The notes under the pieces are model-generated. The model saw nothing but the letters and a program-made list of their open reading frames with translations. It had not been told where the DNA came from and ran no database searches. Made by a program: the position numbers and the translations under genes. DNA of 61,456 bases, the filler included. It is 15 parts of 15 records of this genome, joined end to end, with 100 filler letters (N's around TTAATTAATTAA, not from the genome) between each part and the next. Parts side by side here need not be neighbours in the genome. Positions count along the whole stretch, not along the records: positions 9,960 to 13,306 come from SRR7504441_33953; 14 more parts are not named here. One strand, 5' to 3'. Within the stretch, counting starts at the first letter, position 1, and each line of letters begins with the position of its first letter. Positions 3,135 through 13,406 of this stretch are shown one piece after another.

Positions 3135-3234
3135 NNNNNNNNNNNNNNNNNNNNNNNNNNNNNNNNNNNNNNNNNNNNTTAATTAATTAANNNNNNNNNN
3201 NNNNNNNNNNNNNNNNNNNNNNNNNNNNNNNNNN
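3135..3234. other. Artificial contig linker N44-TTAATTAATTAA-N44 (first of 14)
   Basis: Same 100-nt spacer at 3135-3234, 6515-6614, 9860-9959, 13307-13406, 16574-16673, 21859-21958, 24983-25082, 30685-30784, 34605-34704, 38797-38896, 43309-43408, 47930-48029, 51588-51687 and 57766-57865. The core has stops in all six frames. Confidence 0.98.
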
Positions 3235-6200
3235 ATTCTGGATACTCCGGATCGATCGAAGCCCTGCAGTTTCAAAGCTTTGCTGGCGTGACACCAGCAG
3301 ATCTGCGGGGGCCAGTTGTGGATGCCGAGTCACTGCTGGGGCTATGCAGATTTGCCACAACCCTCATTGACAGCCTCGACGACCCATCTGTACTAAAGGC
3401 ATGGCTGCTGGGGGCCATCAGTATTGCAGGCCACAGCGCTGAAAAGAAGCCTATCATCACCATTTGTGCTGCCCAGGTTAGAGAAGATGACGAGACGATC
3501 ATCGATGCCTGTGCCAATGTTGTTCGGGCATGCGTTGAGAAGCACCCTCACCTGGCAGAAAGTATCGCCGAGGCCAGGGACTCGAGAGGGCGGTCTTGCT
3601 ATGATATTGCTACGCCGCAATGCCGCACTGCTCTGAACAAGGTTTTGTTGTTCGTGGGAAAATATCGTTTGAAACAGCCCCCCGAGCACCAATCACAGAC
3701 TTCTACCGTCTTTTTGGCCGAAGAGGTCATCGATGAAGCTGCTAAGATCACCCGTCGTGTGGCCATAAAGTTTTTTTCTCGGCAGCAGGAATTCGACAGA
3801 GAAGTACAAGCGAGACTGCAGCACGGAAGCGGGCAGCCCAAGAAGTTGTCAGCTGAGTTCGTAATCTCGGTCGATTCAAGCTTCAATGCTGATTCGAGGC
3901 TTCCTGATGGGCGATCGTTCAGAGCCGAAGCATCGAGCAGATCCCTGCCGCCCTTCGCGATTATCATGCCGGCAGGAGAAAGGAACTTGTTGGTGTCGAG
4001 GGCACAGGATCGGATGAGCGTTGATGAGATGATACAGACAATGATATCACTCGGTAAAGCACTGGCGCACGTACACTCTCAAGGCATAATCCACGGGGAT
4101 TTCAAGCCTTTGAATGCCCTTAGATGCTCTGCGACAAAACGTTGGAAACTGATCGATTTCGACGCCAGTGCTGCAATCGGCTCCAGCGTGGCATCAAAAT
4201 TTAGTGAAGCGTATATCGCACCCGAGTTTATGCGCGCTCTGCTACCCCAGCGTACTGATGGAAGACCGTTACTACACGATGATGGCACAATTGATGGAGG
4301 TTGCATAGAAGCCACTGTCGTACTCGATATCTGGGCGTTTGGTGTCGTCATGTTCGAGCTTTTGACTGGTCACGATCTTTTTCCAAAGGAAGTCAGGGAC
4401 GACACGTTGAGATCGGCGACTCAATGTGAAAAGCTGGCCTCGTGGACGGAACCTTCAGGTGCACAGCTGAGTTTGATTTTAAAGGGCACGGACGCCCCGT
4501 CTAGGATGAAGATCGCGGCCCAAGATCTCGTTGCCCTCTGCCTGCAGGTGTGCTTCGTATCCCATTTTGTGATGTGATTGGTGCCTGTTGTTGCCAGGGC
4601 GAGCCGACAGCCCGACCCCAGTCAATGGCCGAGATCTTAGACCACTGTTTTATGACGATGGAAGATGCCTTTCCTGAGCCGCTCGGGCGTCCACTTTCTT
4701 CGTCTAAAGGAGCCAATGTTATTCTCAGTTACACCACTAGGGATATCTCAGCGATGTGGCGCATCAAGCGAACACTGAGATCACTTGGGGTTACAACAGC
4801 GGACGGCACTGAGGTCTCTCTTAGAGTTGTGTGCAGAAGCGAGTGCTCATTGTTCGGCAGGTGCCACCTGGTGCTGATTGGCGCGCATGGTATTTCAAGC
4901 AGCTGGAAGCAGCCAGTGTGTTTCTCATTATATACAGTCCGAGGTACCTACAATCGGCAGCATGCTACGAAGAGGCACGGGCGGCTCATTCGTGGGGAAT
5001 GCCAATCGTTTGCTGCCATGTTGATGACCCTGAGGATGTTGCGGGCACACTTTTGAAAAACGTAAATTTCAACAAGGCCTCGCCCGAAATGTCCCCGTAC
5101 AAAGATTGGCCCAGCTGTACTCGCCGACAAGAATGGACCGGTACCCTATCAACGGTCATGCGCACAATTCCTGAGGCAACGGGCGACTTTGGTGCGAGCT
5201 TTCCTCAGAACATCTCCATTTTGGTTGCTGCAATTCAAGCTGCGGTGCCACCCTCATCTACTATCCATGCGTCCCTCGTATCTGCTGAGGCGGATCGTGC
5301 ATTTGCTGAGATCCTGCGGGATGAGCTCATTGCCAAGGGGTTCAACATCAGAACAAGTGGTTTGACCGAACCGGAGCAAACAGAGCCTCCAGTGCAAATT
5401 CTCATATTGTCAGGATCGTTTCTGGTGGAGCGCTCGTGTCTTCAAGAGTTGAGATCTGGGTACGAAGCAGGCTCATCTGTGCTACCTGTTCTACACGATA
5501 AGTCATCATTTGAGGATATCTTGATGCATTGTACGGACCAGGAAGTCTCGGGATCTTCCGAACTGGCTTACAGCTTGCCATTCATCTCCAGTATCCTGAA
5601 TCGTGCCAATCGCATTCCCGCCCGCGAAAACTTTAACACAGACCATCACCTACATGTGCTCACATGCGCTTTACAGGGCTTGCTTTTCCTAGATCGAAGT
5701 GAAGCTGCAGTGCTCGCGAGACGCGTTCCCAAGTTGTATTCATTGATCAACAAGGTTATTCCACCAACAACCAACTTTTCCGTGGACTCACGCCATGACG
5801 TTTCGCAGCTGCTTCGAGCGATTCTACCGGATGCTCCTCACTTGGAGTCGTGTTTAGGAACGAGCACCCCCCACTCTATTTCTGGAGCTCCAGCCGAACA
5901 TGGCGAGAGTGAACGACCAGAGCGAGTGGTATTTTGCACAGCTGGCGGAGCCGAAGCAGAAGTCCTCACCGCCCGGATGGAGCTCGAGATGGAGAGATGC
6001 CGCATTCAAGTAGCTAAAGTTGGGCATGGAGATCTGCGTTGGTGGTCTGAGTGCGATCATTCTAGCCATGTCGTTGTGCTCCTGTCTGGAGATTTTGTTG
6101 CGTCAGGCTCAGCTGAGAGTCAGTTGACGTATGCCAAGGATACTGGCCGCAAGATTGTTTACGTGATGCACGATGTCGAGAGCTTTGGGCAGCTGATGGC

Positions 6201-6387
6201 TGCATCGACCCAAATTGTAGCGAAGCCTCGTGTTGACGATGACGATTTGCTCGAAGCCGTTGGCCAGCACCAGCTGATACGATCAATGTCTGCTCAAGAG
6301 CGTGATGTCTTGCGCCAAGCAGCTGAGATGAAAATAACTGAAGAGGAATTAGACATGATAATCATCCGGCGCAACTCAAGTATATAG
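3235..6387 (+). CDS. Protein kinase followed by three TIR-like domains (5' partial)
   Basis: Kinase motifs VAIK, HGDFKPLN, LIDFD, YIAPE, DIWAFG. GT-AG introns 4548-4597 and 4814-4860 join ORFs 3288, 4550 and 4831. TIR-like segments VILSY...VFLIIYSPRYLQSAACYEE, ILILSGSFLVERSCLQEL and VVVLLSGDFVASGSAESQL. Confidence 0.8.
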
Positions 6388-6692: not shown

Positions 6693-9600
6693 TTGGGTAA
6701 TTCTGTACCCGAGCCGGAGCTGAGCTCGATGGAGTATGCGAACGAACCAGTGAGCAACTTTGAGGATAACAGCATTGAGACTACGCTTGGTCAAATGAGA
6801 CAACAGACGGGGCAGAACAGGTCAAATGGGACTCTCCGCAGCGTCGTGGACCGGTTCGTGGCCAGTGATACGCCGGCAGATTTCAAGTCAGAGTTTTCCC
6901 CGGCGAAGATCGCAGCGGAAGGACCCGATGAGCACAGAGTTGTGAATTACTCGGCCGATGAGGTGCAGACCACCACCGATAGGATCATGAACGCGGTGGG
7001 AGGGTTCTCGAAACAGAGTGTCGACAACGGTCCTTATTTTAAAGGCCCGAAGCACAGTGTGGGCAGCAATCCGTGGTTCAGAGGCTTGAACGCTGCTCGT
7101 GACAAGATGGCTGTCGCTGCGGGAGTATTCAGCGATCACGGCAAGATGGGCAATGGGCAGCCAAGCGAGTTGGCAACAGAAGTTGACGCGCCTATTGATG
7201 CAGCAGGGGAGTATTGTAGTACTGGTGCGATCAGTACACCCTTCAGGGAGTCTGAGGAAGGGCACATCCGTCCGAATGTGTTGACTGATGTGGATCCAAT
7301 TGTGGACGCCTGTAAACTTTCTTTCGACGACATCCAGGAACTACAGGAGGCTCTCGATCTGTTGTCGACTGGAGTGAGTCAAGCGACGGGCAGCGTGCGA
7401 CCCTTGTTAGGTATGGCGGTGGGACCGACCCACAAGAGAGATGCTCTTATTTCAGTTGACGAGGTGAAGACTCAACTTGCTTTTGTGGCCACCGTAGTGG
7501 ATCGTATTGTGCGCAAGTTCGACAAGATCCAAACTTTGGAAACGACAATTACTAGCCTAAAAGCCACAGTTCAGATGCTGGGACACAACATGGTGAATCT
7601 ATCCCGGGGAGAGCGCGAAGCAGATGCTGCGGCTCAGTCAGAGGCGTACACCTGTATTCAGGGGTCTCTAGGCGAGCTTAAAGCAGCTGTTGCACTGCTT
7701 GGGGATAACGTTGTGAGGGATCCAGTTACCCTGGACACCCCAGTATTTCAGCTGTTCAGGGTTGTTAGCGAGTTGCAAGACAGCATGCGATCGAGGTCTA
7801 GTGACACAGCAGCCATTCGCCGCTCAGTGGATAAAGTCACTGCTGCTGCCAATTCTGCGTGGTTCAATATCAGCAGAGCAATTGGTAAAGACGAACCTGC
7901 ATCTGACGAGGCGTATCTCTTACGGACATCTTTAAGTGACTTGGAGTCTGCTGCATCTCATGTGCACGACATGGTAGAGTCTTGTGACTGTCGATCTGCT
8001 GGGAATCAACTTGCTTGTGCCAGTGTAGCAAAGCTCCGCAAGTCAATGCATCGTCTGGACGACTCTCTTGAGAATGCCTGGTTTAATGCAAAGCGGCTGT
8101 TACCAAGCAGTGCCAAAAAGGCAGGCGTGTTCCTACAAGACACGAAGTTCTACTTTGATCGAATGCACAACTCAATATGCGACCTCGATGTAGCATTTAA
8201 AGGTGCTGGCGACAGGCTTCTCAAGCTCTTCAAAACCCGAATCCCTGCTGGTGACCGCCTTGCTGCGTCTGTAAATGATCTGTCCGTCGCCCTTGCTAGA
8301 GTAAAACACAGTGCCACACAATCATTAGGTGGCGAGACCAAGGTGAAGTCGCTGATCTCGGCCTGCGATCCCCAGCATTACCACAAAGTGGGTCAAGCCA
8401 TTGAGATAATTGTGACTTCACTAGGAAGTCTTGAAGCTAATCTCACAAACTTTTGCACCAGTTCTCCGGGAAAACGAGACAGCAAATGGTTCAGAGGATC
8501 CGATCCGATATCCTGCTTGCAGTTGGACTTTGAGAAGTTGGCCGATGCTATTGGCGTCGCCTGGGATAGTATGATCAAGGCTACTACTCAGCATAGACAA
8601 GCAGCCCCACTCCATCAAGAGACCGATCCCCACGCAGTTTATGCTCTCAGCGCCGACATCGATCAACTTAGGCAGTCGTTAGACCAATTTAGCGACAATC
8701 TTTTTCATGCAACAGAAGGCGAAGGTCGCCGTTTGAAGATAAGTATCGAAAATCTTAGTGGCGTGATCCGCAAGACTGGCCACGGACTCATCTCAATGCT
8801 GGGAGGGCACAGTCGGCCACGGACAAGTTCTAACTTTGAGCGCAAGGAGTCAAACGGACTCAATCGGACTTGGAGCTATGAGACTGTTCGTAATGAGCCT
8901 GACGATCCTGCCTCTGAAAACACAGGTCTTGAGCATGAGGAGTCATCCACATCACCACAGGGACTCACTCGAACTATCACGCAAAGTTGGATGATTCAAA
9001 ATGAGCATGGCGGTCCTTCTACCAAGAGCAGCCAATCCTGGTTTCGAGGCGCTGTGAAGAAATCCTGGTTTCAAGGCTCGGTGATGTCTACTAATACCGC
9101 TACAGGCAGTGATGCTGCTCAGGCTAGAGAGATTCCATCACAGGGAGTAGATCGATCCAAAGATGGTCAGAGCAGCGACAGCAGGGTGATGAAGCTGGCT
9201 CCTCCTTTCGAGGGTAACCTTGAAACAAAACTCGCGCAATTGGAGGCACGGAAGGCTGAGCTTGTAGCTGCAAAGGACTTCCGGAGTGCGGCAGCAGTCA
9301 AGCAACAGATCAAAGCCTTGAAGGAACGCGAGGAGCAGAACCAAAGCCTGAGAGCGTCAGACGCTGTGAACGATGCCGAGCTTGCTGCGCCTGTCTCAGC
9401 TGAGCGGCTAGGGCAGCTCATTATGCAACTAGGGCAAGTCTGTGATGCAGGTCAAGCCAAGATGCGCCAGGTACTTGGCGATCCCATGTACTTTGCACTG
9501 GCTGCTTACCGATCAAAGCAGTCCCGCGATGCTGGGCTAGATTGTTCTGAGTTCTGGGGCGAGTTCTGGACTCATATCATTGTAGACATTGGAATGAACA

Positions 9601-9859
9601 AGTGTGCTCAATTAATCGAGAGCATGCTAAATGACACCCAGGCCAAGTGGGAAGCTAGCACCGCGGGAAAGGCCCGCGAACAGTTTCTTTGTGACATGGC
9701 CGACTATTATACCTGTTTCCCAGGCAGTTTGGCTGGCAACGTGCATCTTGAAGAGCTGCAGAAGGTCTGGGGTGAATGGAGCGGCCCTCTACTTAAGAAA
9801 CTTGATTTGGATATGGATGGCAATGTTGGACCAGAAGAGTGGCTTCATTTCTGGGACGA
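6693..9859 (+). CDS. Large helical/coiled-coil protein with UVR-like motif and C-terminal EF-hand (3' partial)
   Basis: >1000-codon intronless ORF. LAQLEARKAELVAAKDFRSAAAVKQQIKAL is UVR-like (~9230-9320); LDLDMDGNVGPEEW is an EF-hand. Start uncertain (first ATG at 6729). Confidence 0.7.
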
Positions 9860-10150
9860 NNNNNNNNNNNNNNNNNNNNNNNNNNNNNNNNNNNNNNNNN
9901 NNNTTAATTAATTAANNNNNNNNNNNNNNNNNNNNNNNNNNNNNNNNNNNNNNNNNNNNAGTCGAGTGGGTCAGCCCCACCACATAACAAATGTTACTTA
10001 GTCTTTATCTTGGTGTAGAATCACAGTACAAGTTTGTAGTCTAATTAATATCTAGAGTCACTAAGAGTCACACATTAGTATACTGTAACCTCGAATTAAC
10101 ATAATTCATTATTCTAAACGTATTGAAATGACATTATCTTTGTGGCTATC

Positions 10151-13100
10151 TTATCGGGTGGGTGGTTTTGGGCTCACACTACCTTTCACTACATTAATGC
10201 GGTCGACGAGCTCGCTAAGGATTCCAGACAGATTTGAGCTCGGTAAGGCAGCCGCTCCCTGAAAGCGCTGAACATGAAACTTGAGCTGACCAGTGCAACG
10301 ATCATACCCGACCCAATCGTGCCCTCCGCTCGCGACCTTTCTCTTTAGATTGTGCCTATGGTTCCTAAATTCTTCCCGCGAAAGTGGGAGGTTAGGCTGA
10401 GTAGGGAGCATCAACTCAGCTGTGACCAAGCACTTGCAATCAAGGGCTGGCAGCTCAACAGGATCCAGTCGCACTCCTCCGCGAACAATCTGAACCCTCT
10501 CGCAATCAACGCTTCTTAGGTCCACGGGTTCCTCCCAAGCAACGCTGCCAAAGCCTTCACGTGTGATGCTGAAGTTGTTCACAGCTTGCAGTTCTTCTTG
10601 CGTCATGCCCTGCAATTGTTGAAGTGGCGGAGAATAGGTGTATTCCCGCCCCCGGATCTGCTTGGTGAGCATCACTTCTTGCGGTAACAACTGGACTGTC
10701 TGCTGTGACGATGCGTTCATTATCAAGTGCACGTTGTCCCCACTGATGGAGGTACCACTGATGCTCATCGGCAGACCTTGAAGTGGGAGGGGCATGGGTT
10801 GTGCAGTTGGCAGCTGCAGGCTTGGGCTATTCTGAATCGCCCTGACTGATTGGACAATGTTGATGTGACTAGGTGCAACCCGATGTTGCAATGTCAATGC
10901 ACTTGTCGTCACTGCAACCAGTCCGGACGCCAGCCCAGTGTGACCCAAATTTGCCTTATGTCCCACTAAAACGAGTGGCCCCGCTGCCAGCTCAGTGACA
11001 GAGACCAGAGCCATGAGCTCGGGTATGTCAGTGGAGGGATTACCCATGCCATGCGGATGCGCTACCCTGACACCCTCGGCTGCAGGTGGACTGCCCGCCA
11101 TCGAAAGTGCGCTCTCGGCAGCGCTTGCCATTTTCTCAGGGTCAGCAAACCCCACGGGGAGGAGGGCACTGGTACGGTTTGCTGCCCAACCAATCAGACA
11201 ACCGTCCGTCTTCGTTTGACCCAATATTAATGCACAACATGCTTCGGAGAGTATTGTTCCGTCAGCCTGTGAGTCAAAGGGCCGTATCAAGCCAGCCATA
11301 TCTTTAGGTTCAAGTGCCATCGAACGCGAGAAGGGGATCAGGTTTGAGCTAGTGACAATTGCGTGGCCACAGTGGCCAATATTATCAAGTGCCCGGTGCA
11401 CCGCCAAGTATCCACTGGCACATGCTCCAGAATCGATATTGGCGATAGGACCGTCAACGCCCAATTGAGATGCTATTACCCGTGCAACAGCCCATTGCTG
11501 CAGCATCACGTCGTTTTCGGTGCTAACTGCACAAAACACGCCGCTTCCCTGCGGTGCGCCCTCTAGTTTCGCATCCACAAGACTTGCACAACAACAATCT
11601 AGTAGCAGACAAATGTCCTCGTGGATGGGGTCTTGAGCCTCAGAATTCCACATGATCTCGTGTTTATACACCTTAAGGTCGAGAACAAAACCAGCTGCAA
11701 TTAACTGTATCTGCTGATGCTTTGGCTGGCGTGCTTTTCGGTCAGATGACAATCGCGGCTCGATGCAGTTTGCACCCGTGCATAACGCGTGCCACAGTTG
11801 ATGTGGCATTTCTATGCGCCCTGGAAGTCGGCATGCTTGGCCAAGAAGCTGAACACCCGAGACAGCCTTTCTTGCAGACCTTACAGCATCAGGGATACCG
11901 ATTGTTGGAGTATCTGGTTCTTTAACATGAGCCAGCGTCAGGGGGCTGAAGAAGCAGTCACGAGTTTTACTTGTCTCTTGCTGGGCATGTATAAATTGAG
12001 CTATTGCTTGAGCCGTGGGGTAATCGAATGCCAGCCTGCTTGGCAGTTTGGTGGCCCTGCCTAGCTCGCTCTGGAGCAAGCTTCTGAGTTCAGTGGCTGC
12101 AAGCGAGTCTACTCCACTCTCCACTAAGGAATCGTGCATCACGACTGGCGCTCCTGCAACTTCCTGCACCTTCTGCAGCACCATTTCCTCCACTGCTTCT
12201 AAGGACCGCTGGCTGTCGGGGCTGCCTGTAGCTGCCGTAGGGTGAGCTGAAGCAACCCTGTGGGCAGCGAAACTGGTAAACACTGGTATGAGGTCGAGCT
12301 CTCCATTCTCAGCCAAAGTCAGCTCAAAGCTCCTCAGTTCGCTGTTCTTTAACTGGAGGCTAGTTGAATGCTCTGGCTGAACTGCTGATGATTTTCTTGA
12401 TCCCAATAAGCTTCTTAGGAGCTCGCCATGACTGACGACGAGTACCTCAGACTCCGGACGTGCCATTATCCACTCTAGCGCGCAAGTTCCTCTTCTAAGC
12501 AGTGATCCTGCCGGCTCCAGCTGATCTGCCATCCATAGCTCATCTTTCTCGGTTTGCAACTCCGAAAAGTCCCATTCGCTGAATGTTCTGGCCAGCTCAG
12601 TGCGCGGCCTCCGCTTTGAGTGCAGCAAAATTCCCGAAATCTCGCGCAGCCAGTCAAGCGACACCCGTACAGCATGTGCCGGAAGCAAGATATTTGCGGT
12701 CTGGATTGTCCTAGACAACGACGAGGCAACCACAAGATCCACACCAGCCAGCAGGTCGGCATGCAACATACGAGTCTGGGCTGCCTGCTCTCGGCCTTGC
12801 TCAGTCAGCTCTGCGTCGAAACAATCGTCGTCGGCGATGAGGTGAAGATCCTGATCCTTGGCATTCTCAAAACGCACATTGTGCGCTGCTTGCGCATGCC
12901 GCACAAAATGCACCAGCTTTCGGCGCTTAGTGACGTTTGGTTCAGTAGTGCGGCCCCCTGTAGCAAAGTCTGCCAGGAACTGCGGTGCCTCGTTCTCGCC
13001 ATGCTCCATTCGCATCAACAGCACTGGCCACTTCGCAGGCACCATTCCCACCACGCCTGCGTTCAGATTGAGCTCGAGAGCACGGAATCCTAAATCTTCG

Positions 13101-13306
13101 GTGATTGGGGTCAGGCCTTGCGCCTCCAGCCGTTCCACCACGCCTGAGCTCACTGCCATACCAACTCCTGCCCAAGCACCCCATTGTACGCTGCAGCTTG
13201 GTAATCCCTGGGCCTGCCGCAGCCTCGCTAGCCCGTCTAGGCACGCATTGGCTGCAGCATAGTTAGCCTGACCTGCATTGCCCAATAGTGTCGCTACTGA
13301 TGAGAA
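10151..13306 (-). CDS. Type I polyketide synthase fragment: KR, histidine phosphatase, ACP, KS, Nup98-like peptidase S59 domain (5' partial)
   Basis: [22 protein letters not shown]...SVQWGAW. His-phosphatase: [35 protein letters not shown]...[52 protein letters not shown]-terminus: [10 protein letters not shown]...[20 protein letters not shown]...[15 protein letters not shown]. Confidence 0.88.
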
Positions 13307-13406
13307 NNNNNNNNNNNNNNNNNNNNNNNNNNNNNNNNNNNNNNNNNNNNTTAATTAATTAANNNNNNNNNNNNNNNNNNNNNNNNNNNNNNNNNNNNNN
13401 NNNNNN

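Follow-up and report, generated by a model that had tools for sequence, protein, structure and literature searches.

A 61,456-nucleotide stretch of DNA, referred to here as the window, contains on one contig (SRR7504441_33953, positions 9960-13306, 3347 bases) a minus-strand reading frame that we interpret as the 3' portion of a genuine gene for a modular type I polyketide synthase (PKS) from an uncultured marine eukaryote. The synthase would belong to the PKSs that lack acyltransferase (AT) domains, and it carries two additions: a histidine phosphatase, which lies between the end of a ketoreductase (KR) and an acyl carrier protein (ACP) domain, and a C-terminal S59 domain of the Nup98/Nup145 type, which follows a ketosynthase (KS). 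Taken as a whole, this explanation has in our judgement a somewhat better than even chance of being correct, and its parts are of unequal strength. The PKS fragment and its phosphatase insertion are very probably real, and the S59 fusion is likely to be real as well. A docking role for the S59 domain, suggested by its position as the last domain in two organisms and by the peptide binding known of this fold, is possible but falls short of probable, and removal of phosphate on the assembly line by the phosphatase is a tentative and rather doubtful proposal.

The frame extends without a stop from position 13306 to a TAA codon at 10151-10153 and comprises 1051 codons; it has no start codon, its 5' end being cut by the contig end at 13306. 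A sequence-only reading of this DNA had described a frame of more than 1000 codons with a KR tail, a phosphatase, an ACP, a KS and a nucleoporin-like end, and had named six protein families. The frame proved real, and all six families scored above the curated Pfam cut-offs against which domain calls were judged. The first is the C-terminal part of a KR (13169-13306, residues 1-46, 57.7 bits, cut-off 22.6), cut by the contig end and thereby reduced to profile positions 134-179 of 180, with the tyrosine Y16 in the motif GQANYAAAN. It is followed by a histidine phosphatase of branch 1 (His_Phos_1, 12320-12910, residues 133-329, 56.8 bits, cut-off 21.7, E 3e-15) and by the ACP (PP-binding, PF00550, 11990-12181, residues 376-439, 37.8 bits, cut-off 20.8), whose serine S401 is present in the motif GVDSL. 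The KS (10718-11851, residues 486-863) is recognized by ketoacyl-synt (PF00109, residues 486-697, 53 bits, cut-off 20.8) and Ketoacyl-synt_C (PF02801, residues 721-817, 49.2 bits, cut-off 20.8), and the S59 domain by Nucleoporin2/S59 (PF04096, 10262-10645, residues 888-1015, 59.8 bits, cut-off 28.4, E 4.4e-16). A tail of 36 residues (residues 1016-1051, 10154-10261) continues past the position of the nucleoporin cleavage site. GC and GC3 are even across the domains, and the flank beyond the stop codon (9960-10150) is AT-rich; from its GC of 0.34, against 0.51-0.59 in coding sequence, these 190 bases are probably 3' untranslated region. A carrier domain, a KS and a KR are thus fused in one open frame, as is characteristic of type I PKSs. 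NCBIfam gave only matches far below cut-off (PKS, FabF, CobC and dPGM models). As had been claimed, no thioesterase or reductase release domain was matched by Pfam in the 1051-codon frame, and no AT.

The closest relatives of this polypeptide are protist sequences, and its description as a eukaryotic type I PKS with the domain order given earlier holds. A search among proteins of 578-1840 residues returned 222 matches among 8000 scored candidates, the two best being P0003, from Telonema subtile (EukProt), and P0004, an ENA protein. Over the KR tail, identity is 57% to P0003 and 52% to P0004, and over ACP-KS it is 31% and 34%, respectively; judged by these similarities, the nearest PKS relative of the owner is that of Telonema subtile. 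PF04096 and PF00300 occur in none of the best 120 of the 222 relatives. Some giant bacterial proteins also score highly, owing to their many repeated modules, at 31-36% identity. A bacterial contaminant contig was considered and rejected: the S59 domain matches nucleoporins only, the contig has an AT-rich 3' flank, and of the two best relatives one is a transcript from a eukaryote and the other an unnamed protein in ENA.

The longer isoform of the Telonema protein, P0274 (2360 residues), reveals the plan of the family. It is a complete open reading frame (ORF) with the order AMP-binding part, ACP, KS, dehydratase, enoylreductase, KR, ACP and divergent KS; it contains no AT (PF00698) and ends shortly after its last KS. 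Because this AT-less protein ends in the same type of KS, the KS-terminal, trans-AT-like split module is a family trait and not an accident of the window contig, which bears out the split module suggested by the sequence-only reading. Among the eight best relatives covering at least 36% of the query, seven have no AT listed and one, P0011, has an AT; being length-limited pieces, these eight speak only weakly for the absence of AT. The earlier claim that AT is missing stands for the segment, and since the ORF is cut at its 5' end, it is silent on the rest of the gene. A metagenome scan with six peptides, aimed at a 5' extension or independent copies, yielded 21 matching stretches but no relative. 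AT-less multi-domain PKSs have already been reported for protists, namely dinoflagellates (PMC5725682, PMC7159223), and many type I PKS genes for single-cell genomes of Telonemia, Centroplasthelida, MAST-2 and Picozoa (preprint 10.64898/2026.04.17.719054).

The first addition is recognizable from the spacing between the KR tail and the ACP, which is about 30 residues in P0003, about 50 in P0004 and about 250 in the window. Because of this difference, the phosphatase reads as an insertion of about 220 residues into the KR-ACP linker. In the Atlas, protein-language-model features place residues 113-362 in His_Phos_1 clusters (0.96). R199, E222 and H293 fall on their counterparts in PhoE (1ebb), in an alignment that is weak overall (E 0.051); R136-H137-A stands where the RHG motif is expected, with N143 six residues on, a motif read from the sequence as it falls outside the PhoE alignment. 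We take R136, H137, N143, R199, E222 and H293 to be the catalytic set of the family (Arg and His of RHG, second Arg, Glu, second His). All of these residues are kept, so the domain looks active, and the embedded phosphate chemistry proposed earlier is plausible as a prediction of activity. An AlphaFold2 single-sequence model of this part was unusable (mean pLDDT 34.2).

The second addition is homologous to nucleoporin domains. Residues 866-1051 are placed in S59 clusters of the Atlas (0.94), and the domain alone finds nucleoporin domains in 19 of its 23 PDB matches at E<=1, including all 17 best; the other four, none with an E below 0.12, comprise antibody chains and AcrVA2. With a three-sequence profile of PKS-borne S59 domains, all 23 PDB matches (23/23) are Nup98, Nup145 or Nup116 domains, matched over the whole domain, the best at 3.5e-8. 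The window residues F-H-V-Q-R-F-Q align on F-K-V-N-H-F and the next residue of Nup145 (3kep), and F1015 aligns with the final residue of the cleaved Nup98 chain 9hcj_U0. In the H-F-S motif of nucleoporins, the His is catalytic and the Ser nucleophilic. Here, R1014-F1015-Q1016 takes its place, and because Arg and Gln replace His and Ser, self-cleavage is unlikely: the domain appears to have the S59 fold without being an S59 peptidase. Nucleoporin context is absent too, with a ketosynthase upstream instead of FG repeats and a stop 36 residues downstream instead of Nup96. A fragment of 124 residues, P0229 (source 'merc'), is 96% identical to residues 881-1003; the 'merc' catalogue was presumably built from metatranscriptomes and, if so, P0229 is a second sign that the S59 part is expressed. 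A search of the S59 part against proteins of 327-2000 residues gave no match among 1350 candidates at E<=0.01, with a word-based method that is too weak for this purpose. A local profile search found no further S59 domain among 282 sequences, and an AlphaFold2 model made with one close relative was unusable (mean pLDDT 33.6).

A second PKS that ends in an S59 domain already sits unremarked in a public transcriptome. It is P0149, a transcript product of 4289 residues from the choanoflagellate Salpingoeca infusionum (EukProt), flagged by a phmmer screen. P0149 has four KS, two KR and four ACP domains and a dehydratase, no AT (PF00698), and the terminal order ...KS-ACP-S59. PF04096 is matched at residues 4174-4284 with 29.9 bits (cut-off 28.4); the last 138 residues alone match Nup116 at 1.9e-6, and all 18 of their matches are nucleoporin domains. 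The protein ends in ...W-T-F-T-I-S-T-S-A-A, without H-F-S. The borrowed docking fold of the sequence-only reading is therefore borne out as regards the fold and a second case, with the cleavage motif lost; docking is still inference, which P0149 makes more probable.

The KS between these additions is itself unusual. Against a canonical KS (the first of P0274), it scores 36.9 bits; the terminal Telonema KS scores 46-47 bits, that of P0004 43, and the two of P0244, another ENA protein, 34 and 28, whereas other KSs reach 96-308 bits and the full-length ones at least 160. In a tree of 32 domains hand-picked from 23 of the 282 proteins, in which the giant proteins are only partly sampled, these five KSs (window, Telonema terminal, P0004 and both of P0244) group together with support 1.0, and the branch that carries them measures 1.5. 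The window KS appears to represent a distinct, divergent type found in some protists and typically last in its polypeptide. In an alignment with 27 canonical KSs, C629, H752, K784 and H789 occupy the catalytic Cys-His-Lys-His positions, which confirms the Cys/His/His motifs quoted earlier, and the divergent type is probably still able to condense. No ACP follows the terminal KS, so the extender must come on another protein, which is the split-module logic of trans-AT systems. In P0244, residues 885-1666 hold two divergent KSs of this clade in tandem. The stretch between them matches SAM_2 at 16.8 bits, below the cut-off of 20.5 (E 0.0078), and as a lead only, it may be another eukaryotic interaction domain placed after this KS type.

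Parts of the stretch are contained in 20 public runs, none of which holds half or more of its sampled words. Contigs were compared for X1-X3 (DNA or of unknown kind, from two studies) and the RNA run X7, and these are 95-99+% alike to the window. The sequence-only reading had made its case dependent on sequence across the domain junctions, and three of the four are crossed by contigs of other runs. The KR/His_Phos junction is bridged by X2 (12377-13213) and X1 (12662-12986), the His_Phos/ACP junction by X1 (12086-12383), X2 (12035-12308) and X3 (12212-12626), and the ACP/KS junction by X2 (11745-12004) and X3 (11877-12124); the KS/S59 junction is not bridged. As both junctions of the phosphatase are bridged by other runs, its insertion was independently assembled. 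RNA-run contigs are colinear with the window over 10122-10275 and 10288-10521, a range that includes the tail and the stop codon (X7 from 10275 to 10122). No further exon is spliced on past the stop, though carried-over DNA in the RNA library is possible. The remaining runs (X4-X20, including oligo-dT and polyA RNA) hold 0.05-0.10 of the sampled words and give no evidence of habitat or expression. The compared runs show 34 single-base differences, of which 18 are synonymous where random change would give 24% (binomial p 2.9e-4); all three inside the phosphatase are synonymous, a very small count, and the S59 domain has one synonymous and one non-synonymous difference, per-domain counts being too small for more. 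In the 3' flank, X2 is without 4 bases at 9990. Summed depth in X1 jumps to 21.6 over the KR motif at 13208-13306, with loose ends at 13243-13276, and a KR motif common to other PKS genes probably explains the contig break at 13306.

From these elements, a working scheme can be proposed. The polypeptide would comprise the end of a reducing module (...KR, ACP) and then the KS of the next module. The ACP would hand the growing chain to the terminal KS, and this KS would condense it with an extender carried on the ACP of another polypeptide, the two proteins forming a split module. The phosphatase, reachable from its linker by the ACP arm, might remove phosphate from an ACP-bound intermediate or building block. 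The S59 domain and its 36-residue tail, having lost the protease role, might bind or dock the next subunit or another partner.

Several observations weigh against this explanation. With the 5' portion of the gene absent from the contig, the term AT-less rests on the relatives. The architecture is rare: among 270 PKS relatives, S59 was found only in P0149 and the fragment P0229, and the histidine phosphatase in none (0/270, best phmmer E 0.075), so that the latter has no second case. This rarity is compatible with a phosphatase that does not act on the polyketide and is instead a regulatory protein phosphatase, a fused housekeeping enzyme or an inactive spacer. The family does include protein phosphatases such as PGAM5, itself among the weak PDB matches of this part, and the Atlas clusters closest to the domain consist of small enzymes of about 200-220 residues that stand alone. 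Yet the domain is placed exactly in the KR-ACP linker with the ACP within reach, its catalytic residues are kept, and the few variants within it are all synonymous. We consider this alternative unlikely, though it keeps appreciable weight.

The join between the KS and the S59 domain is known from the window contig alone. Positions 10707-10766, at the end of the KS, are uncovered in all four compared runs, and the flanking contigs just end, without loose ends; this hole, which no repeat in the contig explains, proves nothing either way. Among 144 candidate fragments sought across the join (residues 790-930, in proteins of fewer than 578 residues), only P0229 passed, and it starts past the join. 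The S59 part could therefore be an assembly chimera, in which the end of the KS was joined to another gene at a shared or poorly covered stretch: run depth is only about 3-5, contigs are short around the join, and the piled-up PKS genes at the terminal KR motif make tangles in the assembly graph a real concern. Still, the frame is open and in phase over the join, GC and GC3 stay level across it, and no run contig departs from the window sequence where the uncovered positions begin or end. Neither is the S59 domain a normal nucleoporin copy, given its R-F-Q and its early stop, and a fusion of this kind also occurs in an unrelated eukaryote, in the transcript P0149. A chimera thus appears quite unlikely, and a true fusion is the reading that we retain.

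The two PKS-borne S59 domains do not resemble each other closely. They are 31% identical, and in phmmer the window domain scores only 10.5 bits against P0149 and 22.6 bits against Nup145, so that a single origin is not established; the two fusions may have arisen separately, in which case no shared function follows. In nucleoporins, the S59 domain binds either the Nup96 terminus or Nup88/Nup82. The greater closeness to Nup145 would suit a domain that has kept its nucleoporin job and binds a Nup96-like or Nup88/Nup82-like partner, serving as a localisation tag that tethers the synthase to the nuclear pore or some other large body. Both S59-bearing PKSs, however, are AT-less multi-subunit types, which need docking, and we judge a localisation tag to have only a slight chance of being right beside the docking role.

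A 4-base insertion (AAAA on the plus strand) behind position 11172, in contigs of X2 and X3 from one study, would shift the KS frame; X1 is without it. It may stem from a broken allele, from a paralogue or from faulty assembly, and the gene may be broken in at least one population. The window copy appears to be the intact one because its frame matches P0003 and P0004 on both sides of 11172. This insertion, together with a KS that scores far below others, could mark a decaying PKS copy whose odd domains are rearrangement debris. Such a pseudogene is, in our estimation, improbable: the window copy has 1051 open codons, synonymous variants are enriched, the catalytic residues of KS, ACP and phosphatase are all kept, an expressed Telonema transcript contains the same divergent KS type, and RNA-run contigs cover the 3' end. 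Least credible of all is an S59 domain that is still an autoprotease, freeing the 36-residue tail or cutting a polyprotein of the full gene into subunits as in Nup98-Nup96, since the clear homology to the S59 autopeptidase and the residues that continue past the cleavage-site position, as they do in Nup98-Nup96, are outweighed by the Arg and Gln at the catalytic positions, by P0149, which has Thr-Ser there and ends two residues later, and by RNA-run contigs that run colinear through tail and stop without a further exon.

The window as a whole consists of 15 separate short contigs, as indicated by 14 artificial linkers of N/TTAATTAATTAA/N, with none expected, at 3179, 6559, 9904, 13351, 16618, 21903, 25027, 30729, 34649, 38841, 43353, 47974, 51632 and 57810; neighbourhood across these linkers therefore carries no synteny. 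The PKS contig is flanked by two of them (9860-9959 and 13307-13406), each an N run, TTAATTAATTAA and a second N run, which separate contigs and are not biology. PKS sequence is confined to this contig, as tblastn with P0274 and P0149 as queries found none in the other 14 (0/14). Those contigs contain plainly eukaryotic ORFs (actin, Sec16, ankyrin repeats, protein kinase and TIR). A protein kinase ORF (3288-4577, plus strand) and an ORF with a TIR_2 domain (4831-6387, plus strand) share one contig, and an ORF of 1055 residues at 6693-9859 (plus strand), which runs into its contig end, matches no Pfam family.

Many bioactive polyketides are known or suspected products of marine protist modular PKSs. 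To our knowledge, almost none has been studied biochemically, and we know of no explanation of how the subunits of the AT-less types pair. A eukaryote-specific protein-binding fold at the C-terminus of PKSs from two distant lineages is a concrete and testable docking candidate and, if it does dock, would be a new part for PKS engineering. It would also indicate that a nuclear-pore autoprotease fold can be reused after loss of its cleavage residues. The in-line histidine phosphatase points to a phosphorylated intermediate or building block and, if this is correct, widens the known chemistry of these enzymes; carrier-bound dephosphorylation would then be a tailoring reaction not known to us in polyketide synthesis. 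A bolder generalization, which we offer as speculation with little expectation that all of it holds, is that AT-less protist PKSs have recruited the S59 fold, perhaps repeatedly, as a class of terminal docking or assembly domain, and that this lineage added a PGAM-type phosphatase that makes carrier-bound dephosphorylation a step of the assembly line.

What is new here is the pair of accessory domains; the core is of a known kind, an AT-less protist PKS. The open-access literature yielded no paper on a PKS that carries an S59 domain or a histidine phosphatase, subscription journals and supplements lying outside that search. The undescribed assembly line suggested by the sequence-only reading accordingly stands for the two fusions, neither of which was found in that literature, and not for the core, since AT-less PKSs of dinoflagellates are already in print.

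Comparison with known systems places each component. Subunits of known trans-AT systems are joined by short helical docking elements or by none, and in bacterial trans-AT systems the last domain of a polypeptide can be a KS that works with an ACP of the following protein, as is proposed here. Like the window, bacterial trans-AT split modules have no in-line AT, and neither, as reported, do the trans-AT-like PKSs of dinoflagellates (PMC5725682, PMC7159223). No report of S59 or a histidine phosphatase in trans-AT or trans-AT-like PKSs was found in the open-access literature. The Telonema proteins P0003 and P0274 and the ENA proteins P0004 and P0244 share with the window the order KR-ACP-divergent KS, the long-branch KS clade and the lack of AT. 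They differ in having neither phosphatase nor S59 domain, with KR-ACP linkers of 30-50 residues; P0003 and P0274 end right after the KS where the window continues into S59, and P0244 (1666 residues) has, unlike the window, a second divergent KS beyond the first. P0149 is likewise an AT-less modular PKS with a last domain of the Nup98-type S59 fold without H-F-S, but there the S59 domain follows an ACP instead of a divergent KS, the KSs are canonical, no histidine phosphatase is present and the host is a choanoflagellate.

Outside this family, the C-terminal domains of the Nup116/Nup100 type (3nf5, 2aiv, 3pbp and 7tbi) are the best PDB matches of P0149 and are among the matches of the PKS-borne S59 profile. 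They resemble the window domain in belonging to the same fold family and in being terminal and, as is probable for the window domain, non-cleaving, and differ in lying downstream of FG repeats in pore proteins, whereas the window domain lies downstream of a ketosynthase. For the phosphatase, a parallel is the FkbH type, in which a phosphatase is also built into a PKS beside an ACP and links phospho-metabolites to building blocks. FkbH belongs to the HAD superfamily and acts in loading modules, whereas the window domain is a member of the histidine phosphatase superfamily and occupies the KR-ACP position of an extension module.

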